Shown here one piece after another: positions 497-61,800 of a DNA stretch of 64,000 nt. Every line of letters begins with the position of its first letter. The stretch's first letter is position 1. The notes under the pieces were generated by a model that did no database searches, was not told where the DNA came from, and was given only the letters and a program-made list of their open reading frames with translations. The DNA comes from Amoebophrya sp. A120 (Eukaryota > Protista > Dinoflagellata), in the NCBI GenBank assembly GCA_905178155.1, contig CAJINV010000002.1, positions 7,160,743 through 7,224,742 on the forward strand, written 5' to 3'. The position numbers and the translations under genes are program-made.

Positions 497-3400
497 ATGT
501 TGGGAGCGGGTTCTTCTAGAGCTGGCGCCAACGCAGCAATGGTGACAACTTCATCATCTTCCTCCCGTAGTGAGCGCGATTCGTGCAACAATGTGGCTGC
601 CGGTGGCGAGGTGGAGCTTCAAGACATGAGCCTGGGAGGGTTCCTACTGGCCGCAGAAGGACGGGGATACGAGCCATGTCTAAGAACTACGGACCATGAT
701 CATCTCGCTGGTGCGGCCTACGCACTGTCTGCTGGAGCAGGGAAAATAAACGATCGGCGCCTGACCTTTCCCTCTGCAAGCGTCTCGTCTGGAATAGACG
801 ATGTCGATGTGATGAACAGAGGAAGGCAAAAATCGGCACAGATCAAGAACAACAGGTCAAAGAAAACCACTTTTCTCTCACGGATACAGACCAGTTGCGC
901 AACCACCTTCCGGTGCTGCCCCTGCGGAAAAAGATCAGTGCTGGCTGAAGAGTTGTCACAAAGAAAAACAAGTAGCGAACCGACGAAATTCGTCGTGACG
1001 GTGATAATTTTGATTTGGCTTTTCTTTGCGGTGAACCAGATTTGCGCGAACCGCCGCTTCACGCGCGTTCTCGGCACGGAGCCTTGGTTTAAGATCTCTC
1101 AGCCTACGTTGTGCTGTACCGGATGCTTCTTCCTTTGCTGCTTCTTCAGCTTCTTTACGGACAGGTTTAAACCTCTGTTGCCCGGCACGGACTTGTGGCG
1201 AAGCAGGGCGAAGAACAGGAGCTGCGCCGATCAGCAGGCCGCGGTGGGGGGCACAGAAGAACATGCTGTGCCGAAGTTCGGAGCAGAAGGAGGGCGGGCT
1301 GCAAGGACAAGAAGTAAGAGCAACAGAAGAAAAAAGAAGAAGGCGAGATTAGCAAAGCTGCGACTGCAGACGGGCAGTGCCAATAGCACAATCCCTGCAG
1401 GTGGGATTGGATTTGGAGGAAATAGTGGCGAAATTGAGATGCGCAACTTCCAAAAGACCTGCAACGGTAAAGATCTAGAGTCAAGTAGAGCATCTACTTC
1501 TGGAGAGTCGTACACATCAAGCGAAGATGAAGGAAGTTCTTCTAGTGTGTCTTCTTCTTCTGACAGCGACGAAGATGTGGACGAAAAAGCAACAGGCACT
1601 CGTCCTGCAGGGCAAGGACACTTGCATCATGGTGCGAGGACTGACAAAAACCAGTTTCTCGTAAACCAAGATCCTACCCCAAGTAGTGCGCGAGGCAAGA
1701 ACACGACCGCGACAAGACCTCCGCTCCTAATTGCAGGCACGCCTGGCGCACCAGCGGATAAAGACGTCGATGACATGGAAAACGATAATAATGACGATAG
1801 CCCCCCACTGATTATTCCTAGCTACCAATACAAGGGGGTCTATCGCTCGCCTGCAGCCATCAAGTTCCGCGAATACGGCGGCACAAGCAGCGAGGGGGAG
1901 GATACCGCTTTTGACTTTCTGAAAGACGTCCATGGGAAGTCTGAGAAGGAAAAAAGAGAAGCAGAAAGATTGGCTCAAAAACGCAACAAAGCGATTGCGC
2001 ACGAGAGCTGTACTGCGAATGCTAGTAGTGGTGGCGCCGCCCTTGCGGTGGCCACAACTATTTCTCCACCCGCAAAACCACCAGCAGTGGAGGACAACTC
2101 GACGAAGCATGCCTGGCGGCAATTCCTGATCCCGGGAATCGCGCTTCCCTCGCTCCTCGCGACGCAGAAGAAGGCGCACCAACTCAACCCCGGCTCCCCG
2201 TGGCGCATGGAGCCACTGTTGCTGCTCTGGGTCTTCCTCTACGGCCAGTTTTTGAAGATGCGCGAGCGGAGGAGACACGCGCAAAGCGGAGGACCACTAG
2301 AGGAAAATTTCGTGGTATGAAATGCAAAAGCATCGTACTAGTAGTAATCGCATTACAAATTTGCTCAGCATGACAAATGGAATTTCTCATGCTGATTTAC
2401 CTTGAAAAAGAGATTTGTCATGCATAAATGGGATCACTACGAGTACGATACTTTTGCAGAGAATACGTGGCCGAAAACGTTGGCGAGTTTTTCCGGGATC
2501 ACTATCCTGTGCAAAAGTATCGTACTCGTATTGCAGTCATGCATTACAAATTTCTTTCTCAACTCAAATCCGCATTACAAATTTTATTTGTCATGCTGAG
2601 GGAATTTGTCATGCATTTATACGAGTGCGATACTTTTGCAATTCATAATCACAGGTCGCTGACGAAGCGGAAAAGCGACGAGGAATTGAACAAAGTTCCC
2701 TTGCTGTCAGCGGACGAACTGTTGCGGAAGTCGTTCTTCACGCAGGAAAATTATCCAAGTCATGGGGAACATCAAGGGCGTCATCACCGTCGTCGGAGCA
2801 GAAAAAGATCTTCGCACAATAGAAATCGGGACCACACCAGCACGACGACCACAATAGACGAAGAGAAAAAGTCCATCGCCCGGCTGACGCGCGACAGCAC
2901 GCAGGTGCTGTCAACGTTGCTGCAGGATATCAAACCTGTTAGTAGTGAAAACGAGGATGATCCGAATTGTCACGACGAGAACCTACAAAGAAACAAAAAG
3001 CCCCACGACCTAAACCAGTACTACCTCCCGGCGAACAAGGCCACCGCGAACGCCTCCACGTCCTCGACGACCTTACGCGAGACCAAGCGGCTCTCTCTGG
3101 TCGCCCTCGCTCTCACGACGGTCGGGGGTTTCGCTTCCGGGTGGATCCACCACGAATTCAGCATTTTTCACCCGGAGCACCACAAGAACGCGGAAGAGTG
3201 GGATCACTTGTACGAAAAGCTAGAGAGGGATCAGAACTTGCGCAAAGAGGAGCGACTGGAGCGGAAGCGGCAGGCATTCGTCGCAAAATACGGAACTGCT
3301 GGAACTTCTAGTGCAAGTAGCAGGCGGCAAAAAGGAGGACAGCAATTCGGGAGAGCAGGTGGTCATGCTGAAGCGCAAGAGATCGGCGAGGCGAGTGGTC

Positions 3401-6400
3401 CTCCACTGGACCGCGATGGAGTAGTCCTCGGTGGTATCGAAGAAGCTGACCCTCAACACCAATCCATCGAGCAAGTAGATGATGGGTTGTTGAACAGTTC
3501 CTGGGGCTCGAATTTCAATCGTATTGGCGACGAAACTAGAAGACACGTGGATAACGTGTTGGCGAGCATTTTCGGCAGTCAGCATTCGTTCAATGTAGGA
3601 GCTGCACGAGGACCAGGAGACGACGACACCATCGTTGCGGACGAAGGGTTCAATGAAAATGAACCGCGTCAAGGTAGTGGTCCTTTACACCATGATGATG
3701 ATCAGGAAGATCATGAAACTACCAGCAACAGTCGGAAGAAGAAGTACAACAGCTCCAGGACAGGGTCGACCTTGCAATCAGTCAGCGAAGAGGCTGGAGC
3801 ACAATCGGAAAGGGAAGAAGAGAGCGAGGACTTAGAAAACGTAAGTCACGGGGGATCTTCCGGTGCAGCAGCCTCGCATGTTTTTGAGGATCCGGATCCC
3901 AACGAGAGCAGCAGCACACCCGTAGATTCGACCGAAGAGGATGACGCCAGCCTTAATATGCGAAGCCGACCCTCCGCTCCAGTTGTTGTGATGAATTATC
4001 AGCCCCCGCGCGGTAGGCCCGCGGGTGGTGCGCAGAACAAAGCCTCCGCGTCAAAGTCAGAAGGTAGTGACGAGGAAGGCGGCTCTGGACCGCCTGGAGG
4101 AGTTGTGACTCTGGCGGACGGTCGTGCGGAAGGAGCGGTAGAAGAGGTAGACGACAGCATTTTTTCCCATTCTCTGCAAGATGAACAGCCGGATAGTATT
4201 CAAAAGTCCCGCTCTGACCCCACCGGGTTGCGTGGAGTTCCCGTTGACCAGCTAAATCGGAAGAAGCGGAAAAAAGAAAAGCGACGACCCACGCCAACGT
4301 CCATCATCACAAACTTCAACGAGGACGGAACTTCTGCACCGACATCAAACAACATGAAAAAGACCATTTCCGCCGAAGAATACGCGTGGAAGACCGGGGA
4401 TCGCGACTTGCTCTACGACCCGGACAGCACAGAAGACGATGTATGCTCTGCAAAAGTACTTATCATAATACGTATAAATTGCATTGCAAATTCTCCCAAG
4501 AACAAAAATGCAATTTGTCATGCTATTTCAGCTAGAAAGTTGCGTTGGATTTGTCCTGAATATCTGCAATTAGTACGAGTGCGATACTTTTGCACAGGAT
4601 ACAGCGACCAGTTTGACAATTTTCACTGGCACGCCGCGGTCTGGAAGTATCTCCACCAGCACAGCTACCTGCTCGGTGTGTTCGAAATTGGTCCGCACAA
4701 CGCAGAGTTCGTCGGATTGATTTTAGCACTACTGCACTCCATGTGCCAAGCGGTGTTTCTGGTGTCGAGTAAAAGCGCGCTATCCTCCGTGAAGGTGCCG
4801 GTGGTGGGGACGGGTAGAACAAACATGCTCAACAAAATGGCCAGAAATGGAGCAGGTGCTGGCCCAGGTGGATCAGCTACATCCTCTAGTGTGGTCGGTG
4901 CCACCACAACGTTGCCGCCAGGGCGCGGATTTGCAACGAGTTGCTGGATCGGCATGGTGTTCACATTGAGCATTGACGGTTTTATGTGGTTCATGGAACC
5001 GAAGGAAGAGGACATCCGCAGCCATCTGGCCGGGCACGGAAACACCGGAAGTTCCGATGAGGAGGACCCCGCTAGTACATCCCCATACTCATCAACCAGC
5101 ACTCTGGGAGGTGGTAACTCGGCTTCGCGAAACGCGTTCGACGATACTAGTGCTGGCGGAGATGAAGGCGATGGTGGTTCTGGAGGCTCGGCTTCGGGAA
5201 GTGGAAGTGCGGCAGGTGGAACTGGCACTGGTGGTAGGGTTGCCGCTGCAAAGAACCACGGTCCTCTTAAAAATAATATTGGAGCGAACAATGACGGCGC
5301 ATCGGGAGAGCAAGGGGCTCGCGGCCCGACGGCAGCCCCTGCCAATGCCAGTGGCTCAGCTCCTGTCTCTTCAGAAACCGCACCTCCACCTCCCCCCACG
5401 CCCTCGAAATCACCCGCAGCGGGCACGATGGGTCCGCCGAGCGAGCCGCGGTATTCCTCGAAAGATCATTACAATGCGAGAAGCATTACAAAAATCCCAC
5501 GGTCAGGAAGTCAAGAACTCCTCCCTCCCAGTCCATTTTCGCCCGCCGCGGCCTCGCAAGACGGAGGCTCCTCTTCCGACCGGGCGTCCAGTAAGGATAG
5601 CATCGTCAGCCGCAGCGTCCCCCGGCCGGACTTGACCCCGCGGGCCAGCGCGTTGAAGAAGAGGGGGCCGCCGCAGCAGCGGCCCAGCAGCAGCACAGCG
5701 AGCAGCAGCAGTTCCACCACAACATTTGGTGGGACGACGGCGATGCTGGGAGCTGGTGCAAATAGTGCCTCCTCCGCGTCGGACTTAAGTTCGTCACAGG
5801 ACGGAATGTTGACCAGCAACACCGGGGATAGCAGTAACAGTCCTGTCGTGTTTCGGCGGCCGAAAAAGAGGGTTACGTTTGACGGACAGGTGACCAAGAT
5901 TCGCCAGGGGGAAAACGGCCTGGTCTTTAGCTACGAGGAACCTGTGCACCGAGAGGAGCCTGGGGATTACTATTTGGATAGAATGCGGAACGACGTTTTC
6001 GCGGGAGATCCTAGCTTCAACAACCTCCTAGCTCAAGCTCAGGACCACGAACCACCCCCACCCGCACCCCCCCACCCGGGCCGCATCCAGAGGCAGCAGA
6101 CCCCGGTTGCGAGGTCTACGGGTCTCGCGGGGCTGGAGGATGTTGATGCGCTGTCGCATGAGGATGGTGAACCACAATCGTCGGAATTTCAAAATAGCAG
6201 TGTAAGAACCACTATTCATGATCCACCTGGTGAGCAGTCTTTATCTTCGTCCTCCTCGTCTTCAAGGGGACGCGCGGAGGAGCGAAGCGGGCGGGGTCGT
6301 GTACGAGGAGTTGCAGCACGACCAGAAGGGGAAGTTCAACATCAAGGAGTAGACCAGCACCAGCAAGGTGTTGATGGAGGAACTACCTCTTCACAGCGAG

Positions 6401-8956
6401 GAACAATTGCACCAACGCTAGGACATGGACAACAAGGAGCTCCGTCGAATAGCAGGCACTCCGACGACGCCAGGGTTTCGTTTGACGAATTCATGAACGA
6501 TCCGTACAACGAGGCAGAGGTGCCGACCGACAATGGAGAGGGCCTTTTTGTCGGTCGCCGGAAGAATATGCTGCGGGAGTTAGCCCCTGAAGGAAATCAA
6601 CGCGACACCGGCGCAGCTGCACCAAAGGACCTGGATAGCCAGGAGGTGAACAAGTTGAAAGGAATTTTTAAAAGCATACATAGGAAAAAGGCATCAACTG
6701 GGACTGCGGCTGCTGGAGTTGGGGGTGCTGGAGTAGGGCCAGCAGTGGGAGCAGGACAAGATGATAAGAAAGCAAACCCCTTGGCGAACAGCGGTCTTTC
6801 CGCGTTGTCGGGTTCGAAGCGATCCACTGGGCGGAGTAGTTCATCCACTTCGCAGCTCTCGAAGCAGAGCAAGTGGAAGGTCGTGCAAAATGCGATGGAG
6901 CACGGGGACTTGAGTGAGAAGGAAAAGAAGAAAGAGCGGGCAGAGAAGGTGTTCGATATCGTAAAAGCCATGATGCACCGCAGGAGCAATAAAGGTGGTG
7001 GCGGAGGAGCAGGACCACCTCCTGTGAGTCAAAGGGATCCAGCTGGTGGTGGGCCACTCGGCCCGCCGGGCGCAACCCCGTTTCACGGCAGTGGCAGCGG
7101 ATTGGGGAAGATTCTTGCGGGGCTGGGGGGCGGTGGAATAAGCAGTGGATCAGGATTAGCACAGCAGCCAGGCGGGGGGTCTAGGTCTTCAGGCGGGCAA
7201 ATAAACATGGTGGATGGTGGTACGACTTCTGACCAGTCCACTGGAGCAGGACAACATCAGGAAGACCACGACGGGAAAATTAACCCAGTTACCGGCTCCG
7301 CATCAGGCAAGCAGAGCATCTCCGAGCGGGACCACCTGCGGCATTGGGTGCGGTACTACCTGCTGGACTGGATGTGGATGAAGTCCCAGATTCTCACTGC
7401 TTGCAGCGTGTTTTTGATCTTTTTCTGCCAGTACGCGACCAAATTTTGGCTGGTGAAGACGCTGGACATGCTGAACATGACCATTGTCGAGTCGATCAAA
7501 ATGATCTGTACGGTGTTTTTGGTCACCATGTTCCTCGTTCCAGCAACAGCGGGGGGCGGAAGTGGAACTTCAACTGGTGGAGTAGGCGCAACAGGAAGTG
7601 CTAGTCAGTCCTCTGACAGTCAAGACAACTCCGGGGTGGTCTCCGAACTCCAGATTCTTGCCTGTCTCGTCACGATTGCCGGTGGCGCCTTATTTAAAAT
7701 CGCGGAGCACTACGAAAAGATGATCCACAGTCTGCACGACGAGATATGAGAGTGCACAACTCCCCCTCCCCCTCACTTGTATGGCATGAAAAGCAACACA
7801 ATCACCAGCACACCTGAGGCCTGAGCATGGCAAATTCCTGCGCCGACTGTAGTATTTTTGTTTGTTGGGTTTCCACCTGCATAATTTGTCATGCAAGCAG
7901 CGCTACAAGGGAGGCAGCGGCTGGATTTGGGATTTTGCGTGACAAATGATGGGGGAGGGTAGTTGTGCACTGTCAGACGAGAAGAAGAGCGTTGAGAAGG
8001 AGCGGGATCAGGTCGTTGGGACGATGAAGGGCCTCGCGGAGGTGGCGCAACTTCGGCACGAGCGGATGAAGCAGATTAAAGAGGAGGAAGAAAAGGAGAG
8101 AGAGGCCGAAAGGCAGCATGCTGCAGAACAAGAATTGGAGTTACAACAGCGCGAAAATATCAAGCGGCGATCGCACCGCACGTCGAATGATTCCACCAGT
8201 AATTCCTTCCGCCTTTTCCGGAAACCGCCCGAGGAAAAAAAGCGAGGAAACACGATGTCCAGTGATAGGATCAGCGTCGGAAGAGCTAGTGGACAACATC
8301 AAGTTCTTGTGCCCTCTTTCAAGAGGAGCACAGCGTCGAACAAAGCGAAAACGGCGAGTGGTAGGCTGAGTGGTCGGGGGGACAACACATCTGTGGCTGG
8401 TTCTTTGAACTTGAAGAACATCAAAAACGAGGCTGAGCGGAGAACTTCCTCTACCCGGGAGCGCCGGCAGTCCGCCGCGGGTAACAGGATAACGAGCCGC
8501 ACTGGCGAACATCACTTCACTGGGGTAGATGACCAGGAGGAACCTCACGACTTCAGGCGACATGTTGCACCGCGTGACCATCATGCTGCTGAACGCGGTC
8601 CTCGTCAAAGTGACGTACTACAAATAGACACGATCGCGGTCGAGTTGCCAGGTCTAAAAATCCGTGCTCAGGAATACGACCGAGAACTTGAACAAGAGTC
8701 AGCAATGGTGCAGCACAAAGACGGTTCGCACCGACAGTCGTGTACCTCCACGGCGTCGTCCTCATCTCGTGGTCTCAGTGTAACTCCTCCCTTCGCGTCT
8801 GGAGGTCCTCTTCGGAAATCCAAAGTGAACCGAATTCTTACCCGCCCGCGCGGATCCAAGGCGACAAGGGTCGCCGAAACCGAAATGGAAACACTTTGCT
8901 ACTATTCGGCTGGAACGAGCACGTGCCCGGCGACACTGTATCCCACATACGGATAA
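497..8956 (+). CDS. SLC35/triose-phosphate-transporter-like (DMT superfamily) membrane protein with very long low-complexity loops, about 2,580 aa after removing 4 TIR introns
   Basis: ORFs 155..2320, 2428..7749 and 7946..8956 join in frame when the elements at 2316, 2503, 4442 and 7745 (+5 nt each) are removed (ENFV|AENV, RDH|RSL, SLHDE|KKSV). About 9-10 hydrophobic segments; the C-terminal KFWLVKTLDMLNMTIVESIKMICTVFL...LQILACLVTIAGGALF resembles TPT/SLC35 helices 8-10. First ATG is at 497. Family call is by motif recognition. Confidence 0.6.
2316..2465. mobile_element. TIR introner, family A (150 bp)
   Basis: TATGAAATGCAAAAGCATCGTACTAGTAGT...ACTACGAGTACGATACTTTTGCAGAGAATA; perfect flanking direct repeat CGTGG; removing 155 nt restores the frame. 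Confidence 0.92.
2503..2647. mobile_element. TIR introner, family A (145 bp)
   Basis: TATCCTGTGCAAAAGTATCGTACTCGTA...TACGAGTGCGATACTTTTGCAATTCATA; perfect direct repeat ATCAC. Confidence 0.92.
4442..4601. mobile_element. TIR introner, family A (160 bp), decayed direct repeat
   Basis: TATGCTCTGCAAAAGTAC...GATACTTTTGCACAGGATA; flanks CGATG/CAGCG; element+5 = 165 nt, in frame. Confidence 0.85.
7745..7977. mobile_element. TIR introner, family F (233 bp)
   Basis: TATGAGAGTGCACAACTCCCCCTCCCCCTCACTTGT...ACAAATGATGGGGGAGGGTAGTTGTGCACTGTCAGA; perfect direct repeat CGAGA; contains the apparent stop at 7747-7749. Confidence 0.9.
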
Positions 8957-23895: not shown

Positions 23896-24574
23896 GGAAT
23901 CAATTTTGATTCGAGGTTTGATTTACCACCACGGGGCGGAGATGTTGTAATCTTGCTTGCTACAACGCCGGAATAAAAATGAATCTCATCAATAGCTAAC
24001 GATGAAACGATAAAGAGCCCAGGAACAAGGTCCTACGTCTGGCGAATTGTATTTGTTGAAGGTGAACGCAAGAAATTCACAGGGAATAGTACTAACTTGC
24101 AACTGCGACTTGGATGTTGAATGTTTCTTTCACGACGAAGTATCGCGCTTATCAACCCTTCTTTACGCAACAAAAGGGCGACATGGTAGTACGAACGACA
24201 GAAGATAGCAGCAGTGCCTGTTTTTCAGCAAATCTAACGAACAGCTTCAGCTACTTGCACAAATTCACCAGCAAGAGGAGTGACTAAGACGCTAAGAAAG
24301 TGACGAACGAAAGCGAACCATGCATCAGTACGATTTTCTCGCACTTAGAGAGACGAGCTTCCGGCGCTGTCTTTGCGGTGTGGTCGCTTCTTGAGCGATT
24401 TTTCTACGTCTTGTTTGACGCTGTGTTCCTGAATTCAACACGACCGCGCTTCATAATCGTACGACGGTGCGCTCAGCTCTCTGGCACGCCAAATGAAAAC
24501 GGCGAAGTTGTCTTCACTCAGACCACAAGTGATCTTCTCGCATAATTAGGAAGACAGTCTGTGTTTTTGGAGTT

Positions 24575-25116
24575 AATAAAAATAAAATTTTGAAATTTCG
24601 CGGATTGGTGAGAGCGAATTTGTAGAAAAATGCTAATTTGAAGCTTGAAGAAGGTTCCTTTGTGGCCGTAGACGGATGGGAGGAAGGCTCTGTGTCATTT
24701 TGAGTGAAGATTAACGACATATGATGGTTGTAATGCGATTTCCTGAAGTCAAAGTGCGCTGATAAAAATAAAATTTTGAAAATTCGCGGAATTTCGAAGT
24801 CGATAAAAATGAAATTTTAAAATTTCGCGAAGTATCCGAGCGCAAAATGGTCAAGATCTGCATTGGTAGAGTTGTGCTTTGCCGGCCGGCACCATACTTG
24901 ATCTTCATCCTGAGTTCAGATCTTGTTTCGAGCCCCAATAAAAATAAAATTTTGAAGTTTCGCGGATTTTGGGCAAACTAACTAAGTATGCAGTGAGTTG
25001 CTGCATGTCTCGCCTCAGTCTGAGCGTTGTCATATATGATGGATGCTAAGTTTGGTGTTGTCTTTTCGCATTCGGCGACCAACCTCAATAAAAATAAAAT
25101 TTTGAAAATTCGCGGA
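24575..25116 (+). repeat. Five dispersed direct copies of an approximately 30-bp AT-rich motif ATAAAAATAAAATTTTGAAA(A/T)TTCGCGGA
   Basis: Copies near 24575, 24761, 24801, 24937 and 25087, separated by unrelated spacers of about 10-155 nt. Confidence 0.85.
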
Positions 25117-43839: not shown

Positions 43840-46800
43840 ATGACAGGCAAACCTGCTCCTGCGAACAAGACAAATGCATCAAAGCGGAACAATTCCTCTT
43901 ATGATGACGATAAATTTTTCGCCACTCTTGCCAAGTTGGAGCAGCAGCAGGATCACGAACATCAACTCAGTGGTGAGACGGGCAGCGAAAATGAATCTCA
44001 ACTGCGATCGACGCATCAGCACAAAAAGACGAGCGCCACCGGAAGGACCGAGAACGCGTCGCAGGATCAGCAACCTCGACTTGGTTCGTCTGGGGCACTG
44101 CAAGGAGACCACGGGGGGTTGTTGGCGGCGCAGGTCGCCGAAAAGCTCCGAAAGCAGACAAAGATTCGGCATCACGAACCAGAAAGCTGCCTGTCATCAG
44201 CTGGGAAGGTAAAACGAATCCGAATCGGGGAAGGTTGGACAGACAAAGGCGCGGTGGGGGCGGCGGAAGGGGACCGAGACGCAGATGAGATGACCAGAAA
44301 CAACGTCGCTCGAGTCAGTGAAAGTTTCGAGATGTTGCAGAACGGGGAAGAATCAGAAAGCCGAAGTCGTCTGGCAACATATGTTGATGCTACTGCAAGA
44401 CCGGCAGCCCCGTTCCTCTTCTACCAAGGAGCAGCAGCAGTGGCTCAAAATGCAGCACCCAGTCGTGGCTCGACAGCGGATAATGTTGATCGGAACAGGA
44501 ATACGACCACGACATCTCGCGGCCGCGAGCAGGACAGCGACCCGAAAATTATTGGCAACAAGAAGAACACGACCTTCAAAACCTTCCCGTTCCCTCGCGA
44601 GCAGATCGGGGGCTCTTCGTCCTCGACGGCGCCGCTAAATAGCAGGTACCCGAACAGCGCCGATAACTTCTTCTACTATGAAGGTGAGGCGACTGAGGAG
44701 GAACAGGAAGTGAGTAGTTATTCCCAAAATCATGAAGCGGGGAACGACACGACGTCCATTGCCTCCGCCATGGACCAATTTGAGAAACGACTGCAGATAA
44801 AGCTTGACCGGCTGCAGCGGGAGCACCTGGAGCCGCAGCTCGGCAGGCGGATGGACAAAATTTTTCAAAAGGACAGGAAGTACGATCATTCTGGTGAGTA
44901 TCCACAAAAAAACAAACATACCCATCCATTTTTTGCATGAGCATGACACATGTTGCATGACAAATTGGATGGGGATGGTTTTTTTTTGTGGATAGTAAGC
45001 TGGACGCACAGCTGCAGCAGGAACACCACGGGAAACTGCGGAAAATGCAGGAGGAGCTGCGGAATTACGAGGCGGGGGAGAATAAGTCTGGCGCCAGTGC
45101 TGAAGGTACACGTACAACTTCTAACCACGGCGCAGGTACTAGATCGAACTTGTTTACTCCATCCGCCACGAAAGCCGCAAAGGAACAGCACAAGCTGCAC
45201 AACATTCGAGACCGGCGCGAACAGGAGGAGCAAGGGCGTTTGCAGGACGAATTTGAGCTGCTCATGAAGCAGCACCGGGACTTGATGCTGGAAAATCGAA
45301 AATTGCTATCCGGGGGGAAAGAATCTCAATATAATTGATCAAGCCTCTTCTTCGTTATGCCACTGTTACGTATTTTTGCAAGTGCCCACGACCCATTTTA
45401 TGCAAACATGATATTGTGGACGGATGCATTGTGCAACTCTTAGCAGATAGTACATACAGTGAGCCGCGGTCCCGCGGAGCGCTGCATCACAATAGCCATG
45501 GCCTAGGTCGGAGGACAGTCTGAGAACGGTGCATCAAATATTTAACGGGCTTCATTTGCATCAGGATAAACGTACGGGGAAAAAGTGGAAGTGTCGGGCA
45601 AAATGTTTGCCGAGCTCGAGGAGAAAAAGCGGGAGCTAGAAGCCTACAAAATCGATGCGGAGCTGAGTCGTGTCGGTAACAACTTTCAGATCATGCGATA
45701 GTGGAGCACGTTGAATGTTGAAGTCTTTCTTTGCAGGAGACAAATGTTGTTTGCTGTTTCCTCCGCAGGAAGATGTTGGCATCTGCGACAGTGTATTAAA
45801 CATAGGATAGAGATGGCTCTTGTGCATCAAATATGGTTGCCTTTTTGATGTAAAAAATGCAAAACTACCTGCACCACAACACACACAGGTCGTGCCGGCG
45901 TCGATCCGGACACGTATTACCGGGAGCTGCGGAAGAACCTGGACCGGTTGCGGAGCGATAAGCAGGATCTGTTCTGGTCAAAGGGCCAGGAGCACTGGAT
46001 CGCGGAGCGGGATCGGTTGCGGGCGGAGATCGAGGCGTATAAAGTGGAATTAGAGGTGCAGAAGGGGATCGAGTCCAGTGAGAAGAAGAACAAAGCGAAA
46101 GCCGACCGGCAAGAGGTCGAAAAGATGAAAGCAGCAGCGAAAAATTCGCACATAAAGCTCGATTTCGACAAGACCAATCCTGTCGTGACCAAACTCGACG
46201 CGGCGATGCAAACGGAGCCGGTGAAGCTACGGGTTGGCGGCGAAAGTTACTACGGTCTGGCGGGGGCAGAGGCCCGAGACCGGTTGATGGCGGGGGAAGA
46301 CGGAGTTTCGCCCCTGTTCTCTTCGGTAAACGCCGGCACGAAAATGCAGCGGAGCGAGGCCATGTTTGGGCTGTCGCCCATGTTGCCAACCGGTGATGAG
46401 TATCCACTGCAACAGTGTTTCTTACTTACTCGTACTAATTGCAGCACAGGATGTTGACGAATCTATTTTCTTACCTGAAGCTGACTCCGCATACTGCAAA
46501 TTGCGTTTTTTCATCATCTCTTGCAAAAATTTGTGATGCAAATCATACTTCTGCTAGTGTAGTGCGATGCTTTTGCAATGCATAATAAGATGGAGGACGG
46601 CCTGCTGGTCGGGGGAGATGAAGAGGAGGACAGCGACGAGGACCAGCTCCTCGGAGACGAACTCGAAGAGGAGTTCGACACTGCGACGGCAAGTTTTGCA
46701 AATACGCAGAACGCGGCGGGTATCAAATGTAAAAATGTCTGGGTCTGGAAGATTGTGAGATTTGTCATGCATATCTCGGGTCACGCAAATGGCGTCTGAT

Positions 46801-49800
46801 GCAGGCAAAAGCATCACAGGTTTCGCGCACGCCTCATGATGCCTGTCCCGCATGAGAAACTTCCTACTTGCGTGCCAAGAAGTGGACAGCTTTTGGCGCT
46901 CATGCAACGCAAAATTTTGTGTGTTCCAGAGTTTGCATCACAAGTTCCAACCCTTCCAGACCCAGACACTTTTACATTTGATAGCGGAAAAGCAGCGGAG
47001 ACAGAAGCGAAAGAGAGTGCTGCAAATGCAGCGAAAGAACATTCGGCCAAAGGGGCATTTGCTGCGGCAGGAACTACTGCAACACCAGTCGGAAGAGCAG
47101 AGACGCGAGAAGCGCAAGGAGCAGATGTTCGGGGACAAACGGAGGAAAAAGCGGAAAAAATTTTTGAACGCAAAAACACAACTACAGACGAAAAACAAAA
47201 CGACTATAGAGAATGGTCATGTGTCCGAGTCCGACGAGGAGATTGCCACCGCCGCGGAAAACACAGCGTTTCTGCTCTCCGGTTACGAGATCAAGGGGTT
47301 TCGGGTTATCATAGAGGCCCGGTTGTTCCGCGTGAAACAGCGTATTAACGCGCTGGAGAAGAAGAAGGAGGAGCTTGCGCTCGTGATCTCCGAGAAGAAC
47401 AAAAAAGCCGGGCAAATTGTCGAAGCCGCGATGCAAAAGGCGGAGAAACTTTTGACCAGATTGTCCGCGCAACAGTTCACGGTGTTCGAAGTTTTTGCCT
47501 ATTTCCCGTCCTACGCGAACGGCGAAGACCCGGAAGACGAAGTGGACATTGACTTGCGGGAGATCTGGAAACTCGACCCAGGATTGGGCGAGGGCATCGT
47601 GTACCTGCGCGAACTGCTTGATCCCTTTGTACTGAATGGGAAGCACCTGGGGCTGAAGAACGATAATATGGGCGCTGCAGCAGGAGGAGGAAAAAGCAAT
47701 CAAGCGAAAATAGCAGCTGCCTCCGCAAGTAAAGGCCAACAACTGTGGAACTACACGAATGTCGAGAGCATTGACGTGGAGGTGAACGAAGCGGAAGTTG
47801 CAAAAAACGCAACTGGTGACGACGACCCGTTTTCGCTCGATTCGAAACCCCTCGTATGCATTGCAAAAGTATCGTACTAGTATAAATTGCATCACAAATT
47901 TTGGCAAGAAGAAAAGTGGAACTTGTAGTGCTGTTTTACCTTAGGAAGGAGATTTGTCATGCATATTTGCAATTAGTACGACTACGATACTTTTGCACAG
48001 GATACCTCGTAACCCGGTACAAGCTGTGGCGGGACAGGAGATATCGACTGTAAAAATGTCTGGGTCTGGAAAAGTGAAACTTGTCATGCTAAATCTGAAT
48101 CATACAAAAATCTGTGTTGCATGATTACGAATAAAGCTGTTCACTTTTGAGAAGGCCGAGAGGCAGTTTGTCATGCGGAAAAGGCATAGTAAAGATCTCA
48201 CAGAATCTGTGATGCTACGGCATGCATCACAGACCTCACACGTCATGCAAAACCTGCATCACAAGTCTGGCATTCTTCCAGACCCAGACACTTTTGCAAT
48301 CCATAGGAAACAGCACGGACAGATCTTCGAGAAGGAGCAGAAATTCCGGGAGCTGCAGCTGCGGAAAGCGCAGGGTGCGGTCGACGCCGCAAAGCAGTTT
48401 TACCAGTCCGAGCAAACGAGGCATCTGCAGAAACACGCTGGCGGAGCGGCAGGTGAAACAACGAAGTACAAACTGCAGCCCACGTCGACGTTGTCGCACG
48501 CGTCGCTTGCCGGTGTCGCGAGCATCATGGCGCGGAAGGTGAAGGCGTTGACGAGCACGGGAGATCCATCTTCAGAGGACCACACAGGCGAGAAGAATCT
48601 CCAGGATGCGATGCACGCGCAAAACCGAGAGCACGAACTGGAGGAGAGAAGTGCCGATCTGAACACGGTTTGCATGCTTTTATCCCACCTCCACGGCCAG
48701 CGGGCCAACGTGCTGACGAAGTTGAAGCAGCAGCAAAAAATCGAGCAACAGCTCGAAGAAGAGCGGAAGGAGAAGGAACGGATCGAGCTCGAGAAGCAGA
48801 AACGGGCACTGGACGTGACCACCAAATTTGTGCAGCTGAACGACGCGGAGAATTACCCGGTGGAGCTGCAACTCGACCAGGCCATTACCAGGGCGGAGGA
48901 GAGGCGGTTGGAATTGCTCACGCAAGATATTGAAGACATCTCGGAGTTGTTGGCCAGCGCGGTGGCGAAACGGAAGCAGTTGGCGGAAGAGAGAATGTTC
49001 ATGGAAAACAAGCGCGACGCGAACGTGAAGAGCGTTCTGCTGAAGAGCCAGGAGCGGCGGGAGTTGGAGGAGAGGTTTGTTGAAAATTGCATGAACGAAA
49101 TGAGTATGCATTGCAAAAGAACTATCGTGATCGTACTAGTATGTATTGCAGTGCAGCACGAGACACCAATTCGTTGCTTAGCTAATTCAGCTGGAAAAAA
49201 TTGTCATGCTATCTAATACCAAGTACGATCATACAGATACTTTTGCAATGCATACTGAGGTGGGAAGATTTGGAAAAGTGCTCCAGCAAAATGTTACGCG
49301 ACACGTACAAAGTTACGCAGGCAATCGAGGCTGGGAACAAGAAAAGCAAAGATAGTGGGGAAGTAGAGGAGCGACCAAAGGGCGGGAGCACGACCCAGCA
49401 CAGAGAGGCTTCATCTACAACTTCTGCAGCAGCTGTAGTTGATGAACAAAATAAAGTCCTGCAACAGGTCGAGAAGGGCTACCAGGAGCATTTGTCGAGC
49501 TTTATGGAGAACATCCGTAGTTTGAAAAACCACAGCAAATTCGGCGACGTGGAATTGGAGCAGAAAGCACATCTAGAAGCGCTGCAACAGTTCCGCAAGG
49601 CGTTTGGGCACCACAACTTGGAAAAAAAGGAGCTGAAGAAGGCGTTGCATTTGTTGAACAAGTTATCCACAGAAAAACACCCATCCACATCCAATTTGTC
49701 ACGCAGAACACGTATAAAATCGCGTGCTTGTCATGCAAAAAATGGATGTGGATGGGTTTTTTTCTGTGGATACAAGTTTAAGGAATTCGACACCACGGTC

Positions 49801-52800
49801 GTCGAGGAGGTCAAGAAGTTCGAGAAAGAGATCAACTTGGAGAAACTCCGGATCTCCTCGGAAATTCGGGATTGCGACCAGGAGGACATTCGCGAGGAGT
49901 TGCGGATGGAACGGAGGAGACTAGACGTCTTAGACCGTGACTTGATCGACCACATGAGCGCTTTCCGGGAAATCGAACGGCAGGAAGACCGGATTACGCG
50001 ACGCATGAAGGAAAGCGACCCGGGCTTGGAGATTTCGCAGCCTGGTGGAGGAGATCATGGGCAGAAGACGAGGAACATAGGGGCATTGATGTTGAACAAA
50101 GCTGAAGCTCGTGATCACGATCAACAAGAAAGTGCTGGCGATCCTGCTCCAAATAAAGCTCCAAAAACCGCGGCCACTGCGGCGTTTTCCGGCCTGATGA
50201 CCATCCTTGCGCACAAGGTGGCGAGCAACAGTGACGTGCAGGGAGATGTGAAGACCGCTACGGAGAAAGCGAGCGGGAAGATGAAGATGAAAATGACCGA
50301 TGGTAGCTCTGACGACGAGAATCAGAACAATGATTCCAGTGGAGAACAAAGAAGCAAACAAGCTTCGTCCACGCAGCAAAAACGACTGACCATGCTGGAC
50401 CTGCTTCGCGACCGACACATGCTGCAAAAACTCCTGGTCCACGCGCAACATGCGCTCTTCTCCCGGCGACAGCTGCTGCAGAAAGTCCGGCGACAGAACT
50501 TGCGAGCGCCCAAACCGGATCGCCTGCTAGACGTTCTGTGCGACGAAGAGGTTCGGTCGATTGATTCCCAGTTCCGCTGGCACCACGAGCTGGAGGCGAA
50601 CATGCAGCAATCGTTGCAGCCGAGACTGTTTTCCGCACTGGATGCGACGACAATCTCGACGGTAAAGCAGCTCGAGCAGTACGAAATGATCACGGCCGAT
50701 TTCCTGTACCAGTTGAACCTCCGTCATCGCCTGATTTCTAAGCGCGCGGAGTTCCGGATTCCCATCTGGGCGGAGCTGGAAACTTCGACCAGCTTTCCGG
50801 AAGCGTTTATTCCAGACGAAATGGGAATCGACGCGATAGGAGATCGTGGAGGAATAGAACTACAAGAAAACAGCAGCGAAAAGCTTCTTGAGCATGACTT
50901 GGTTACCACCTCTCTGAAACCACTGGACAATGTTCTGCTCCACATCGCGGACCACGATGCGCACTACGACGTACAGGAAATCATGGACGATGTCCAGGGT
51001 GCGGACGAGAAGCACGGCAAGCAGATGAATGGCCTCGTGAAGTTGGGGAATCAAGCCCCGGAGGGAGAGCAGCAAGGAGACGGCGCAGCAGCACAGCCGA
51101 AAATGAAATCCGAAGAAATCGTCAAAGCGGAGGAAGAGCTCGCGAACTTGCGAAAAGAGGCAGAAAAGTTGTTGCAGGATAAGACGTATCCTGTGCAAAA
51201 CTACCATACTTGGTATGAAGAATTCAAATTGCAGTCATGCGACCTGATATATAAAAAGTAGTCTCTTTCCAGAGCATTACAAATGCCATTTTTCACAAGT
51301 TCATTTTTTTTGATGCAATTTAGTAGCTTGAAGTATGACACTTTTGCCATGCATAGCACTCTCCCGGCGGAGGAAAGAAAGAAGAAGTGGCTGGAACTGA
51401 TGGAGCACGAGATGGACGCGGAGAAGCACCTGGAAGCGGTGCAGGCGAAGGTAAAACTGCTGGAAGTACATATCCTATTTAAAAATGTCCCTACCCCATA
51501 GTTGTAATGCAAATCTGCATGCTGAAAATGTTTCTCATGCGGAGCCCCATGAGAACCATTCTCTAGTCGTGTTTTGAAATTTGTCATGCTCCAATCAGCA
51601 TGGTATGCTAGATCTGTGATGCTGCTCAGCTAGCTCAAACAGCACTACACTACGAATCCAAATTTGTCATGCAAAACAGCCAAAACTTGTGGATTTGTCT
51701 AGCCGATTCCCCATCTTGCCTATGGTGTGGGGACGTTTTTACTCAGGATACTACACCAAGGGGGAGAGGACGGGGATCCGCACTCTTCCACAACAGATAT
51801 GGAGAAAAAGATGCAGGATTTGGTGAACAAAGACGGACAGGAGCCAGAGATGAAAGAAGAATCTACCGGCGCCAGCCTGCAGGGGCTGATGACCGTTTTG
51901 GCCATGCGGGTGAAGCAGTCCGCGGCCGTCGCGAAGGCGGAGGAGGAGGCGAAAACTCAGCACGCGAAAGAGGTGAAAAAGTTCAACGAGAACCGGGTAA
52001 TGTCGGCCCTCGCGGACTTCTCCAAGGCGAATAAGGGTGCGGCGGTGCTGCACGCGAAGGCGTTAGACGCACTTTCTAGTGCGGCTGACTATGGGAAAAA
52101 TGACCGAATTGAGGTGCTGAAAGCCGTCACGACCATTAGTAAGCAAGAGGCGGAGGCGGTGAAGAAGTTTAAGTTGAAGGAAAGAATCAAATCCCTCTTG
52201 GTGCCAAAACGGGACCCGAATTACGTTGCGAAAGAAGGCGAAGGAACCGAAGCGCTAGAAGAGAAAGACGTGTTTTACCAGTTTATGACGGGGGAAACCG
52301 AGAAGAAAATCGCTGAAGCGTTGGCCGCGGAATCACTCACCGAGCACGTCGAGACCGATGTCGGCCGCCTGGCGAATTTGAAACTGAAAACGCAGGCGAA
52401 ACTGGCGAAGTTGCGGAAAGAAATGAACGAAACCGCGAGGAGCAAGAAGGAAGACGAGGAACAGGCGAAACAGACCGCGGAGCAAGAGAAAAAAACCGCG
52501 GAGCAAGAGAAAAAAACCGCGGAAATACTGGAACACGCGAAACAAAGAACCCTGGAGCGCAGCAAAGGGAATCAGTTAGACATTGAAGAACAGAAAAACA
52601 ACCTCGCGGCTTTTGCGATCTTGAAAGACCAAGAACACACAATCGAAATGATTTCCAAAGAAGCACAGCAGGTGACCACTGCTTTCGCGGGTTTCTTGTC
52701 CGATTGGACGGAGAAGGTGACCGACCTGTTTGAGGATGAGGAGGTGCTGAAGGAGAAGCAAAAGCGGATCGAGGAGGCGAAAAAGCGAGTATCGGAAAAA

Positions 52801-55800: not shown

Positions 55801-58800
55801 AACACACTGCAGATCCGGCTGGCGTTCGAATTCTTCTTCAAGACAGACGTCGCGGACAAATACATCGACTTGGAGCGGAAATCGCTGGGCGAGCCGGTGC
55901 CGGTTTTCTCGGAAAATTACCCGAACGCGTACGAGTTTCAGGTCTTTGGATCGGGCGAGGCGCTGTTCTTCGCGAACCAATTTAGGAACGCTTTGCCGGT
56001 CATTTTGAACTGCGACGAGAACACTTCCAGATTGCGGAAGGCGAACAAAGCGGAGCAGGAAGGAATGCGGGCGCAGTACGGGGGAAGAGGTGCTGGTGGG
56101 GGCAAGAAAATGAAAGGCGCAGGAGGAGTTAGTGAAGTTGATGACCGAGGAGGGTCGAATAGTAGAGCGTCGGGGGATCAAACTTCTTCCTCCAAAACAG
56201 AACAGCACCAGCAAGACGGCACGTTGGCCACCGATCCAAATCAAGACTACGCCTCGATGTTTGCGGAGTTTGTCACGGCACAGGCGGAGGGGTTACGAAG
56301 GAACCACCTGATACTTCACGACAGCGACTATTTTGGCTACCTCCCGACAGACCGCGACAGCAAGAACAGCCACGAGCCCCTGTTTCAGGTTTCGGACCTC
56401 ATGCCTTTCGTCGAAGCAGTGAATCAATTTTCTTTGCAGGCGGTGCAAGTCCAAGATCTGCTTGTCCTGTTGGCCCATGGCGGGGAGGAGTGGTCTTTGC
56501 GGCATCAGCAGAACATCAGTCATCAACAAACGGCGCAACAAGCAAGAACCTCCGACAGTACCGCGGCAGCGGAGTCACTCAAACAACTTTCGGACCAGAT
56601 GCGGAACTCGAAATTTTTCGAATTCTTTCTGCACGAGACGGAGGTGGTGCGACTCCCGGAGGAAAGGTGGCGCGAGGCCGGGGACCCACTTTTAGAGACG
56701 GGGGAATTCGACTCAGATGGTTCGAGCTTCGAAGAAGTGGAAGTAGAAGCGAACAGTTCTCCCGGGATCAAGAAAACCAATGGTACGGCGGCCGCCCCGG
56801 TCTTGTTCATGAATGATGCTGATTATGGTCCGCCTGCGCCGGGCACGCAGCCGCAATCAACACGAGGTCGAGCAGGGCTAGCTGTTTTTTCTTCACGCGT
56901 AGGAGCTGGTCCGACAGCCAACACCGGAATTTTGAAACACGATGAAGATACAACTACAACAAACAGCGAGAAAAAGTTTCGCTTCCCACCGTCTTCTTCT
57001 GCAGCACGTAGTACCTCCCGTGCGAGGGATAGGTTAGCACATCCGGAGAGCACGATGAAGATGAAACAAACGCCAAGTTTTTGCGCGTCGCCCTTCTCCT
57101 TGCTTTTCTCAAGTCAGCAAGCTGCGACCACGCAGGCTGAAGTTCGTGAAGATGACGACGACTTGACAAGCGAAGTGCAAGCGCTCGATCATAATTCATC
57201 CGACGACGAAGGAACAAGTGGCCGCGAAGGAGTAGTAGACCTGTCCCCCGGCGATTCCCTAGTCTACGGCCTAGAGGACGATGTTGAGGCTGGGGACCAT
57301 GATGACAGCAATGGTTTTCATCCGAAGTACGCCGAGCGGGTGGGGGCTGGAAGCTACAACTCCAGTCCCTACCGTCTCCTCTCCTCGAGCACAGGAGCTT
57401 TGCACTCTACATCGTCACTTCGACCGAATTTCCTCTTCTACAACGACAGCAACACGAGTACAACCGCCCAGAAAATCTTTTTCATCGACGAAAAGACCAT
57501 TCCGAAACCGCCTTCCGAACCCGTCCCCTTCCTGTACGGCATGCTCAGCGCCAGTTTGTCTTCCAGCAAGTACCGGGAATTCGGGATTTCCGGTTGGGAG
57601 CAGCGGTCCATTGACAAAGATGTCGTACTGGCGGACGAGTCGGAGATATCCGGGACGGACAAAGTCCGACAATTATTCGGTATCAAACTGGACTGGCGGA
57701 AGTTTCCGATCGTTTTAGTTACCGAAGTGGACGAAAAAACGCCAGACGGGTCGGACAACTCCCGGGCGACGAAGGGAGGCATCGTGGTCGGGGATATGCT
57801 GGTGTTGATCAACGGCGAGCGAATCACCACCGTCGCGCAATTGCGGATCGATCCCGCCACCGAAAAGAAAAACGCCCATCCGGACAGCGTCTTGATTTCC
57901 ATGGTGGCGAAGCGGGTGAAGGCGGAAAAGGCGACCATTTGCTCCTGGCTGTTCCTGCGGAAGAAATACCAGTGCCAACTGCGGCAAATTTCCTACAAAC
58001 CGGGAACGGATGGGGAGTTCGGGATTACTAGGTTTCTCGACAACAGCTGCGAGATCTCGGAAGTATCGGATACCTCGAGCGAGCAAAATTGGGCGAAGAA
58101 AAACGAAGTCAAAGTGGGAGACTCGGTATTGTTTTTCGACGCAGATTTTTTGCTCAAGAGACCGGAAAAGCTCTCTCTACCCGCGACCACAGCGAAGAAC
58201 TCGGTGGAAGTGCTGGTGTTTCGCAAAATGCCCGGCTTTGACAAAAGACTCAACGAATCCAACGTGGCGAGACCACTATCTCCGACGTGGGAGCAGCTGA
58301 TCCAGAGATTCACGTCGAAGTGGGAGGTTGGAACAGGTACAAGTACTGGCGGTGGAAATGCAGCAGCCTCAGCAAGCTTCGCAGGAAACAAACCAGCGAT
58401 CACTTCCTCTCTCGCGGCGTCCGCGTCTTCGTCCAGTTCCGTAGTTCCTTCTTCCCTCAAGCGGGTCTGCAACCGGTCCGCGCCTCCCTCCACGCAGTTC
58501 CTATACGCGATTCTCGCGGCGTCCATAAAAGCCGATAAGTACGCCGATTTCGGCATGTCGGGGTGGCAGCAATCCAGTGTCGATGAGCAAGTGCTCGACG
58601 ACGAGCAGCTCACTTCTGACGAGAAGATGATGAAATTGTTCGGGATCACACTCGACTGGCTGAATTTCCCCGTTGTCACGGTTTCGAAACAAGAAGCGGC
58701 GAACGCAAACGGGGAAAAAACGCGGGCCGCGAGCGGGAACATTGTCGAGGGGGATATGCTTTTACTGTTGAACGGGGAACTATGGAAGCGTCAGGATTGA

Positions 58801-61800
58801 AATCGTCAAAGTTGAAATAATTTGTAATGCATAAAAAGCGACGCAAAAAGTGACTCTATTGCAGAGGACCCACGGGAGGCAGATTGTAGTCCTGGTAAGG
58901 GTCAAAAGTTGGACTGCTAACTACCATGACAGAAGGCAGCTCTTTTGCCCTAAACCGCATGACAGACTCGCTTTCAGGACAGGGAAAATCTGTCATGCGC
59001 CGACTACAAACTGTAGGTCTAACGTGTATGCGTTTTATGCATGACAAATTATTTCAACTTTGTCGATTTCAACTCTGACACATCCATAGGAACGAGTGAC
59101 GACCATTGCGCAGCAGTCCTCCACGACTTTCCCAGACCCGAACGAGGCGGTGTTAAGTTTGGTCCGGAAGCTACGTATTGCAAAAGTATCGTACTAGTAG
59201 AAATCGCATTACAAATTCGGCCAGCATGACAAATGGAATCTGTAATTCGGGTTTAACTTGACAAAAAAATTTGTAATGCATAAATGCGATTGCTACGAGT
59301 ACGATACTTTTGCACAGGATAGAAGCAGGTAGTCGAAAAGCAGAAGAAGGCCCAGTTCATCTTTTTCCGGAAGAAGTACCAATCTACTTTGATCCAATTG
59401 CAAGTGACGGAGGAGGACGCGAAAAATTTTACCACTTGGGGTATCACTGTCTCTGAAAAGGCGAAAGTGACGGAAATTGAGGAAGGGATAGAGGAGGAGA
59501 CCTCTTTTGCGAAGTCCAACAGTTTGCAAGTGAACGATCAACTGATCATTATCGACTCCGATTTTGTCTTCGCGAAACCGGACAAGATGCAGGCGTATCT
59601 GGACAAGAATAACGGAGAGCCTGGCTCGGTCATGAAGGCGGGCACGCAAATTTTGGTGAAAAGACTGCCGCCAGGGTTTCCGGAAGCGTTGAGAATACGG
59701 GAGGCAAATGTGGAGCGGGCGTTGTCGAGTAAGTGGCAGAAGTGGGTCAACGAGAAAGCCGCGTCGAGTGGCGGACAAGTTCAGCTGCCGGGTGCTGCTG
59801 CTGCTACGACGGTTGCAGCTGATGCTCAGGAAAAAGAGCCGGCACCGGCACAGTCGATGACAAAGTCAATGTTGGTGGGAGGAGTCTCCATGAAGGGAGG
59901 GGAGGAGTCGATGACAAAGTCAACGAAGGAGAAGTCTCCATTTGCGTCCATGGCCGAGCCAGCGCCGTCGATGACGAAGTCGATGTTGATGGAAAAGGAA
60001 AAATCTCCGTTCGCCTCAATGGCCAAAGCGAAGGAAATTATGAAAAAGGAAGAAGAAAAGCCAAAGCCAGGTGTGCCTGCTGCAGGAGCGGAAAATACAG
60101 CTGAGAGGACAGCAGTAGCTCCAGCTGCTGCTGCCTCGTCACCTGGAGCTCCTGCCGCTTCATCCTCCGGTCATCTCTCTCGTCGTGTGAAAGACACGTC
60201 TTCCCCACCTACGACCCAATTCCTGTACGGGATTCTCGCTGCGAGTCTGTCCGGGAGCCAGTACGCAGACTTCGGGATTTCCGGCTGGCAGCAGTCGTCG
60301 ATCGACGAAACTGTTTTGGACGACACAAATTTGACTGCGGATGAGAAAATGATGAAGCTGTTCGGCGTCCACCTGGACTGGATCGATTTCCCCATCGTGA
60401 CCGTTTCGAAAATGCAGGAGAAAAACGAGAATGGCGAGCCAACTCGAGCGGCGAGCGGGAAAATTGCGGAGGGGGATTTGTTGTTACTGATCAACGGAGA
60501 ACGGGTCACGACCGTCGCGCAACTGGAGAAGCCGGCGGACGGGAGCCCCCCGCCGGCACATCCGAACGACGCGGTGTTGGCCATGATAAAGAAACAGATC
60601 GTGACCAAGCAAAAGAAGGCACAACTCTTGTTTTTCCGAAAAAAATACCAAGACACGTGGTTTCAGTTCCAGGTGACCGACGAGGACAAAAAGAACCACG
60701 CGCACTGGGGCTTTCTCGCCGCGAACGGGAAGGTGAGTGAGATTTTGAACGCACCGACGGAGAACAAGAAGCACAATGACCCGGAGCACCCCTACCATTC
60801 TTGGGCCGCGAAGAACAAACTCGAGGTGAATGACAAGATCCTCTTCGTCGACGCCGACTTCATATTGAAAAAGCCGGAGAAATTGGACCAACTGCTGCTG
60901 GATCACCACCAGAACCCGGAGTACGACTTGCCCATGAAGCACAAAGCCGGGACGCAGGTCTTGGCCTTTCGGAAGCCACCCGGGTTCCCGGCTGCGCTCC
61001 GGGTCAGGGAAAGCGACGTGGAGCGGAAATTCGGGCGGAGGTGGGAAAAAGCGGTCGGGCGGGTGGAAAGCGACACAGTACAACATCAGCACAAGGAAGC
61101 CGTCAGCCCGGCGAGCGCTTCCGCTGTAGTGAAACCGGAGCCAGAATCCATGAAGTCGTCTACAGCAAAGACTTCTGCGGGTGAAAGTGCTGCGGCAGAG
61201 CCAGAAGTAAAAGCGGCCGCCAAGACGAGCGAGGCTGTAGAGAGAAAAGACGGAGACCAAGGAAAAGCTCCTTCCACAACGGCCACAATGAAGGCGGAGC
61301 TTGAAGAGGAGCCAGACGACGCTTTTTCCCTCCTCGCGAAAGACAAAGAAAAACTTTCAACCACCTATACTGGGTTGAAGTTGAAGGAAAAGCAAACCCC
61401 AACCCCGATCTTTCACTACGGTCTACTTGCGGCGAGTCTGTCGAGCAAACAGTACGGGGAGTACGGTTTCACGGGTTGGGACCAGAAGACGATTGACGAA
61501 AAAGTTTTGAGCGACGACAGCCTGTCCACAGAGGATAAAATGTTCAGGCTGTTCGGCCTGACCCTGGACTGGTCCGGTTTTCCCATTGTCCGCGTGAAGA
61601 AGCTGGATTCCGCGAACAAAACCGCGAGGGCGGTGAACGCGGGGGTGGATCTCGGTGCGATGTTGCTGCTCGTGAACGGGGAGAGAATCACTACAATCGC
61701 ACAGCAGGTGAAGGAGTACCCGAAGTCGCCGGACCAAGCCATTCTCGGACTCTGCCAAAAACGGTTTGAAGCCGGGAAGCGGATGGCGTTTTTGTTCTTG

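Follow-up and report, generated by a model that had tools for sequence, protein, structure and literature searches.

A short word shared by the introner families of Amoebophrya sp. A120 is a candidate binding site for a common protein

Introners in the window

The window analysed here is a stretch of 64,000 nt from Amoebophrya sp. A120 (contig CAJINV010000002.1), in which all ten gene models that we drew lie on the + strand and GC-rich exons are interrupted by AT-rich inserts. We searched, without regard to the motif, for TAT...ATA pairs that have terminal inverted repeats (TIRs), and after hand curation identified 30 elements of 96–334 nt each. These introners insert in either orientation with a 5-bp target-site duplication (TSD) and are removed from the RNA together with one of the duplicates. 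A first-pass annotation of the window had pointed out that a short internal motif, TTGT[CAG]ATGC, recurs across element families that look otherwise dissimilar, and had proposed it as a candidate binding site for a common transposase or splicing factor. Here we describe where this word occurs, how it is placed relative to the element ends and what might bind it.

Excising each element plus 5 nt, along with 11 GT-AG introns, yields stop-free frames in 8 of the 10 gene models; in the remaining two, a wrong start or a single unresolved intron stands in the way. The TSD is perfect in 13 of the 30 elements and matches at four of five positions in 8 more. The inverted repeat starts with TAT, followed by seven variable bases and an A-tract (A 0.65–0.90 at nt 11–15 in a terminal logo of 14 families); TAT itself was a search criterion and is therefore not independent support in this logo. 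The A120 introners described in PMC7789003 have the same TAT start, seven variable bases and A-tract, as well as boundary direct repeats and non-canonical splice sites. Family lengths also agree: in 41 of the 58 A120 rows of PMC12130899 supplementary file 8, which were compared, we find 149, 209, 260, 278, 305, 106 and ~810 nt, against 150, 212, 262, 280, 308, 109 and 815 nt here. At several window elements the DNA depth is far above the background of ~45. The window contains no Rfam matches.

The word is enriched in the elements

Strict matches to TTGT[CAG]ATGC were found 25 times on the + and 24 times on the - strand of the window. Within the 6,339 nt of the 30 elements there are 47 of these 49 matches (7.4/kb), compared to one in 44,828 nt of exon, one in 9,982 nt of intergenic DNA and none in the 2,615 nt of the 11 canonical introns (density in elements versus canonical introns, p=9e-8). 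Dinucleotide shuffles of the elements gave a mean of 0.5 matches and a maximum of 3 (300 shuffles). Base composition fails to explain the enrichment, as the canonical introns are equally AT-rich (GC 0.41, versus 0.42 in the elements). All 15 positions named in the first-pass annotation have a strict match within 2 nt, every one inside an element, and its judgement by eye that the motif is rare in exons agrees with the count. An equal frequency in canonical introns or intergenic DNA, which it had considered as a counter-indication, is not what the window contains.

The fuller consensus of the motif, derived as a matrix, is AAYYTGTVWTGC. Its variable base, across 1,216 sites, is C in 553, A in 416, G in 239 and T in 8. 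The top de novo 8-mer, TGTCATGC, is present in 13 of 14 families. We conclude that the motif is a real and strongly enriched cis-element of known introners.

The word is common to families that do not align

For further copies we turned to one other assembly, possibly of the same strain, in which at least 142 stretches matched the TIR pattern of family A, the motif being excluded from the pattern. From these, 136 loci (~632 kb non-redundant) were used, and motif-blind element calling gave 431 unique elements; in a control on reversed sequence there was 1 call versus 196. Together with the 30 window elements they form 14 multi-copy families and 18 singletons. The frame is open at 403 of 440 element joints, so the multi-copy families are mostly exon-resident, and 390 of 560 copies found by profile have a perfect TSD.

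The word AAYYTGTVWTGC is seen in all 14 multi-copy families, and 442 of 443 members of these families carry a site, versus 9 of the 18 singletons. When the matrix was built with one family left out at a time, 2.0–5.0 sites per copy were detected in the omitted family versus 0–0.05 in shuffles (at most 20 copies per family). Of the 75 window hits of a matrix built from the loci alone, 72 are in elements and none is in a canonical intron. The families themselves are largely dissimilar, with 88 of the 91 pairs of family consensus sequences scoring at most 0.46 in global alignment. After masking, 7 of the 91 pairs keep common pieces of 13–27 nt, mostly a variant AAAC(A/C)GCACTACA, which makes a remote common ancestry possible, if not likely. 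The word is conserved while the sequence flanking it diverges. Judged by these alignments, full-length homology, the other counter-indication named in the first-pass annotation, is not the reason why the families have the motif in common. Among 459 strict matches in the loci that fall outside called elements, 365 lie in homology to elements.

The raw RNA run X8 contains ~85 reads with the family C TIR and the adjacent word (window 21827–21860), though the window exons are uncovered in that run. As the reads carry this TIR without window exon coverage, they point to family C in another locus or strain.

The word lies at fixed distances inside the element ends

Each element end can be divided into three zones. 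The shared zone at nt 1–15 is TAT-N7-A-tract. The zone at nt 16–32 is family-specific, complementary between the two arms and unlike the word; its median identity between families is 0.35, it often contains direct repeats of 6 or 15 nt, and in 4 of 8 families the two arms change jointly more often than in shuffles. The third zone, extending inward from about nt 33, holds the shared word in either orientation. Only 4 of 1,246 sites lie less than 30 nt from an end, and the first site is located at about 38, 48 or 58 nt: across 28 family ends its modes are 37–40 (7 ends), 45–49 (14), 51–54 (3) and 57–60 (4). The corresponding period is 10.5–11 nt (R 0.62, permutation p=1e-4; the families are related, so the ends are not independent). 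In the largest family the two insertion orientations occur 31:30. Multiple copies near the ends, inside the TIRs and in either orientation are typical of subterminal transposase-binding repeats, and this is the arrangement observed here.

Two long elements, L007:505-1608 and L067:6184-6998, have unrelated GC-rich filler. In these 1,104-nt and 815-nt elements all sites lie within 215 nt of an end.

Elements are skipped from RNA in both orientations

The contigs used here derive from X1–X4, which are one sample; its assignment as RNA is putative, but its contigs also skip canonical introns. The raw RNA runs X8 and X9 gave no coverage of the window exons, and the gene at 43.8–64 kb has little contig cover. 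One X4 contig contains two joints: at 58775>59089, 313 nt are skipped, equal to 308+5 (element 58781–59088 and one TSD copy), and at 59166>59322, 155 nt are skipped, equal to 150+5 (element 59172–59321 and one TSD copy). Gaps of 582, 317 and 195 nt in X1 contigs are identical to the predicted lengths after a 1–2 nt correction of intron coordinates, and span seven more elements. Families A and B are skipped in both orientations (59172 versus 29570, and 58781 versus 32263). The positions of TSD mismatches gave no clear splice offset.

In the loci, the element at L011:2386-2653 has a strong TIR, a TSD matching at 4/5 and no word; it breaks a minus-strand reading frame that is restored on its removal. 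At 35423–35721 an unspliced RNA-like contig (35393–35750, depth 21.5) crosses an element whose left end is TTT and not TAT, which hints that the terminal TAT matters for splicing.

The word erodes with the age of the copy

With increasing decay of the target site, the deviation of the motif core from consensus rises (0.048, 0.054 and 0.083), as does that of other conserved columns (0.105, 0.116 and 0.147). The resulting erosion is 0.035 for the core versus 0.042 for the other columns, and the sites per copy drop from 3.75 to 2.91. The same relation is seen among the window elements (rho=0.68). Older copies lose the word about as fast as the background decays.

Search for a transposase and comparison with known systems

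Among 1,952 open reading frames (ORFs) from the window and the loci, 17 passed a zinc-finger/DDE regular expression, and none of these has an integrase in Pfam. Long TIR elements are present in the loci, none of them coding. For the 815-nt element, 8 frames were tried and gave nothing credible and no integrase domain; its read-through frame has no longer homologue, which is weak evidence. A 159-aa ORF matches only one unnamed, 87%-identical translation and a repetitive protein. The element TIR patterns gave 0 matches in viral contigs and in prokaryotic genomes.

The length and ends of the 815-nt element at L067:6184-6998 are like those of published family 38 or 196. A120 family 38 is listed as Ginger, with a 5-bp TSD, TA/TA termini and 808–810 bp (PMC12130899), and this word-bearing element resembles it, a likeness of length and ends only. 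Ginger2/TDD elements (PMC2836005) share TIRs and a 5-bp TSD (TDD-4, TDD-5) with the elements described here, whereas the TGTNR termini that define them are replaced by TAT...ATA. Parallels to the arrangement of the word are Emigrant/Lemi1 (PMC1636448) and Ac/Ds (PMC3260210), which likewise have several short sites inside the TIRs, in either orientation, with unrelated filler. In those systems the binding protein is known and the TIR is shared, and in Emigrant the repeat is a copy of a TIR segment. The elements described here are spliced from exons, each family has an inner TIR of its own, and the word does not resemble it. By analogy, the word would act like a subterminal transposase-binding repeat, but one common to families with unrelated inner TIRs.

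For A120 it has been reported that the element boundaries have no common signature and that the mobilisation and splicing of tens of thousands of introners are open questions (PMC7789003). An internal motif common to families, its phasing or its decay is not described in the examined text and supplements of PMC7789003 or PMC12130899; figure logos in the former could show it. CATGC, GCATG or an internal motif gave 0 hits in the PMC7789003 supplement, and there were no matching terms in PMC12166617. The papers listed for the motif strings themselves were unrelated, in a search whose coverage mostly excludes subscription journals.

Elements and other features of the window

The 30 elements are listed in Table 1. 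A further candidate at 29299–29402 was discarded because it sits within the canonical intron 29298–29500. Counted separately from the elements is 35766–36001, a candidate non-canonical intron with degenerate inverted ends and 0 motif matches. Intergenic DNA at 24571–25117 holds five direct copies of a 35-nt AT-rich unit with no clear TIRs; its DNA contig depth of up to ~900 versus 45 indicates another high-copy repeat, and position 24728 within it is one of the two non-element motif matches in the window.

Table 1. Elements of the window. Family letters were assigned in this analysis. Sites are given as position and orientation sign.
Element	Position	Strand	Observations
Family A	2316..2465	.	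TSD CGTGG; sites ~2350-, 2368-, 2385+, 2416+; excision restores frame
Family A, reverse orientation	2503..2647	.	TSD ATCAC; sites 2541-, 2572-, 2589+, 2607+
Family A, older	4442..4601	.	TSD 2/5; sites 4481-, 4516+
Family G	7745..7977	.	TSD CGAGA; sites 7825-, 7887+, 7937-
Family C, in nucleosome assembly protein (NAP) gene	21603..21860	.	TSD ACCCG; sites 21636+, 21683-, 21723-, 21744-; high copy number in DNA run X5
Family F	27400..27560	.	TSD CCTGG; sites 27434+, 27471+, 27503+; RNA-like contig piece begins 27561
Old, A-like	28055..28231	.	bare TGTCATGC 8-mer only, no site >=11 bits; spliced (gap of 582 predicted and observed)
Old singleton	28977..29204	.	single site 29152-; contig gap of 582 predicted and observed
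Family A, reverse orientation	29570..29711	.	TSD GAAGG; sites 29612-, 29643-; contig gap of 582 predicted and observed
Old singleton	29772..30057	.	single site 29863+; contig piece begins 30062
Family B, reverse orientation	32263..32569	.	TSD CCTTC; sites 32305+, 32352-, 32386+, 32520-; gap of 317 predicted and observed
Old singleton	32654..32987	.	no good site (best 8.8 bits, reached by 13% of shuffles); spliced, gap 317
Decayed, G-like	33176..33272	.	one-mismatch site only (10.5 bits); spliced, gap 317
Family E	33808..34089	.	sites 33840+, 33919+, 33952+, 34004+, 34035+; contig piece stops 33803
Family B	34356..34662	.	TSD TTGCG; sites 34398+, 34499-, 34532-, 34566+, 34614-
Singleton, left end TTT	35423..35721	.	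variant sites 35473+, 35479-, 35605+; crossed by unspliced contig
Clustering with family A	36158..36310	.	sites 36203-, 36234-
Old, F-like	36761..36995	.	no site; splicing inferred from frame only
Family D, orientation opposite to 49664	44899..44994	.	site 44955-
Old singleton	45307..45568	.	one strict match ending 45492 on -, under matrix threshold
A-related	46401..46584	.	site 46532+
Family C	46721..46983	.	sites 46763+, 46811-, 46850-, 46935-
Family A	47855..48004	.	TSD CCTCG; sites 47889-, 47955+
Family C, orientation opposite to 46721	48042..48305	.	six sites, 48082-48256
A-like	49105..49254	.	one strict match at 49201, under matrix threshold
Family D	49664..49772	.	TSD CAAGT; sites 49697+, 49729+
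Old, A-like	51187..51355	.	site 51274-
Family E	51471..51750	.	sites 51503+, 51533+, 51582+, 51615+, 51665+, all same orientation
Family B	58781..59088	.	TSD GGAAC; sites 58823+, 58957-, 58991+, 59039-; spliced out with one TSD copy
Family A, left end TAC	59172..59321	.	TSD GAAGC; sites 59206-, 59224-, 59272+; spliced out with one TSD copy

One of the window genes encodes NAP. The spliced protein of 28000–30966 has a stretch that we take to resemble the Aurora-binding region of INCENP. An intronless 1,311-aa ORF at 38140–42075, with a composition much less biased than that of its neighbours and no Pfam hits at 1e-3, resembles by eye a secreted carbohydrate-active protein. The gene at 43840–64000 has more than 5,800 codons and extends past the window edge; it is interrupted by 12 introners, and a domain is repeated in its later portion.

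Discussion

On balance, we favour the explanation that the word is a double-stranded DNA site at which a single protein acting on every family, either a transposase or a cofactor of transposition, would bind. Such a protein would bind sites on one helix face beside each end and help to bring the ends together so that they can be cut at the TA termini. Copies that keep their sites would be those that amplify, with the sites decaying after insertion, and removal from the RNA would rest mainly on the ends and the terminal stem and not on the word. A fixed word with one free base, in 14 families that for the most part cannot be aligned, would be expected of a site read by one protein. The site is nearly universal in multi-copy members and present in half of the singletons, element 32654 is spliced and L011:2386-2653 is in frame without a good site, and binding of transposase to subterminal repeats is established in Emigrant/Lemi1 and Ac/Ds, on which the analogy is based. 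Of the two factors named in the first-pass annotation the transposase therefore fits best, although no protein was found; the idea of a binding site is borne out by the fixed word across unrelated families, its free base, both orientations and the fixed distance from the ends. These data would also accommodate a splicing factor recognising double-stranded nucleic acid, while splicing in the sense of a branch point fails.

Several observations weigh against a common transposition protein. No transposase or autonomous element was found in the window and loci (~0.7 Mb), and PMC7789003 likewise reports no transposase for A120. The family-specific zone often has direct repeats of its own, as family-specific transposase sites would, and for this reason the shared word may belong to another, host protein. 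The word is unlike the TIR, whereas the subterminal repeats of Emigrant copy part of theirs. One element that does follow the Emigrant pattern has no word and lies in a canonical intron (n=1): L065:5327-5847 is a 521-nt TAT...ATA element with a 5-bp TSD and a TIR close to that of family F, and TGTTATCG, which matches this TIR, is repeated 10 times within the element, in both orientations. In the loci 94 strict matches lie outside any recognised element. Among 500 end-intact copies just 3 have zero sites, and one match survives in most of the old copies in the window; because sites are redundant (3–4 per copy), decay of single sites is compatible with a requirement for one or more. In the core, private changes occur at half the frequency seen elsewhere (0.025 versus 0.050, in a test biased toward that result). 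Finally, the 10.5-nt period of the first site is indistinguishable from the 11-nt period of an RNA helix.

These points leave some room for a role of the word in splicing. It is possible, if unlikely, that a host factor recognises it, either on DNA or on the stem of double-stranded RNA, and thereby permits the element to be removed from pre-mRNA, so that only word-carrying families colonise exons; nt 16–32 would then, with the same reservation, be the family-specific transposase sites. This would suit the presence of the word in all multi-copy, mostly exon-resident families, the rarity of zero-site copies and the location of the word-less L065 element in a canonical intron in spite of a TIR nearly the same as that of family F. 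U1 small nuclear RNA is also undetected in these genomes according to PMC7789003, which leaves the splicing mechanism open. However, 32654 is spliced without a good site, the spliced elements 28055 and 33176 have only weak sites, no site is present in 36761 and L011:2386-2653, which are both in frame, and the core erodes at about the background rate. More doubtful is a related proposal, that the word is an intron-definition signal on double-stranded nucleic acid, at which a host protein or domesticated transposase bound at a fixed helical distance guides precise, orientation-independent excision of the element and one TSD without U1 or GT-AG. If true, acquiring the word would have turned many unrelated miniature inverted-repeat transposable element (MITE) families into introners. 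We think it highly improbable that the word, in its pre-mRNA reading GCAUGAC, serves as a branch point, as the resemblance to TGAC had suggested in the first-pass annotation. The canonical introns do show little branch consensus (YTRAY within the last 60 nt in 2 of 11), but a spliceosomal branch point would share with the word only TGAC, in one variant and on one strand. A TGAC requires C at the variable position, which is the case in less than half of the sites. Strand was called for 176 of 461 elements (those with two agreeing calls, or in the window; the first strand caller was wrong in 4 of 27 window elements), and in these the two orientations on the RNA strand number 260 versus 231 (p=0.21), the site profile from the 5′ end is a mirror image of that from the 3′ end, and 34 elements carry sites only in the orientation without GCATGAC, 25 only in the other. 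None of 397 5-mers tested marks true 3′ ends after correction. With no strand or 3′-end bias, several copies per element and absence from canonical introns, the word is not a branch point.

Two further accounts need no protein dedicated to the elements. The word could be a relic of shared ancestry, or be kept by pairing of opposite copies in an RNA hairpin, which we regard as improbable. Folding of two elements gave stable hairpins (z -6.1 and -5.6), a second site is the predicted pairing partner of 274 of 646 sites, the paired fraction is 0.77 for bases of the motif versus 0.60 elsewhere, and the residual pieces in 7 of the 91 family pairs make remote ancestry likely. Yet pairing alone could not fix the sequence across families, the free base matches between arms no more often than by chance in 5 of 5 families tested (0/7 in one, 15/50 in another), just 2 of 62 sites in family E are in site-site duplexes, and the word is conserved amid diverging surroundings. 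Slightly harder still to credit is that the word recruits a host factor of chromatin or transcription, which might for instance keep the elements accessible or shield them from silencing but would not act directly in cleavage or splicing. Any DNA-binding protein would fit the strand symmetry, the helical phasing and the 94 hits outside elements, but the word is rare in intergenic DNA and its tight link to the element ends is more simply explained by end recognition.

Taken together, a word common to every multi-copy family examined, with a fixed geometry, offers a bait for the trans-acting protein and a query for the autonomous helper, as well as a target for mutagenesis that would separate transposition from splicing signals. 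The results suggest that many published families may be one system with a three-zone end. The word at a fixed distance inside the ends thereby provides a handle on how introners spread and are removed.

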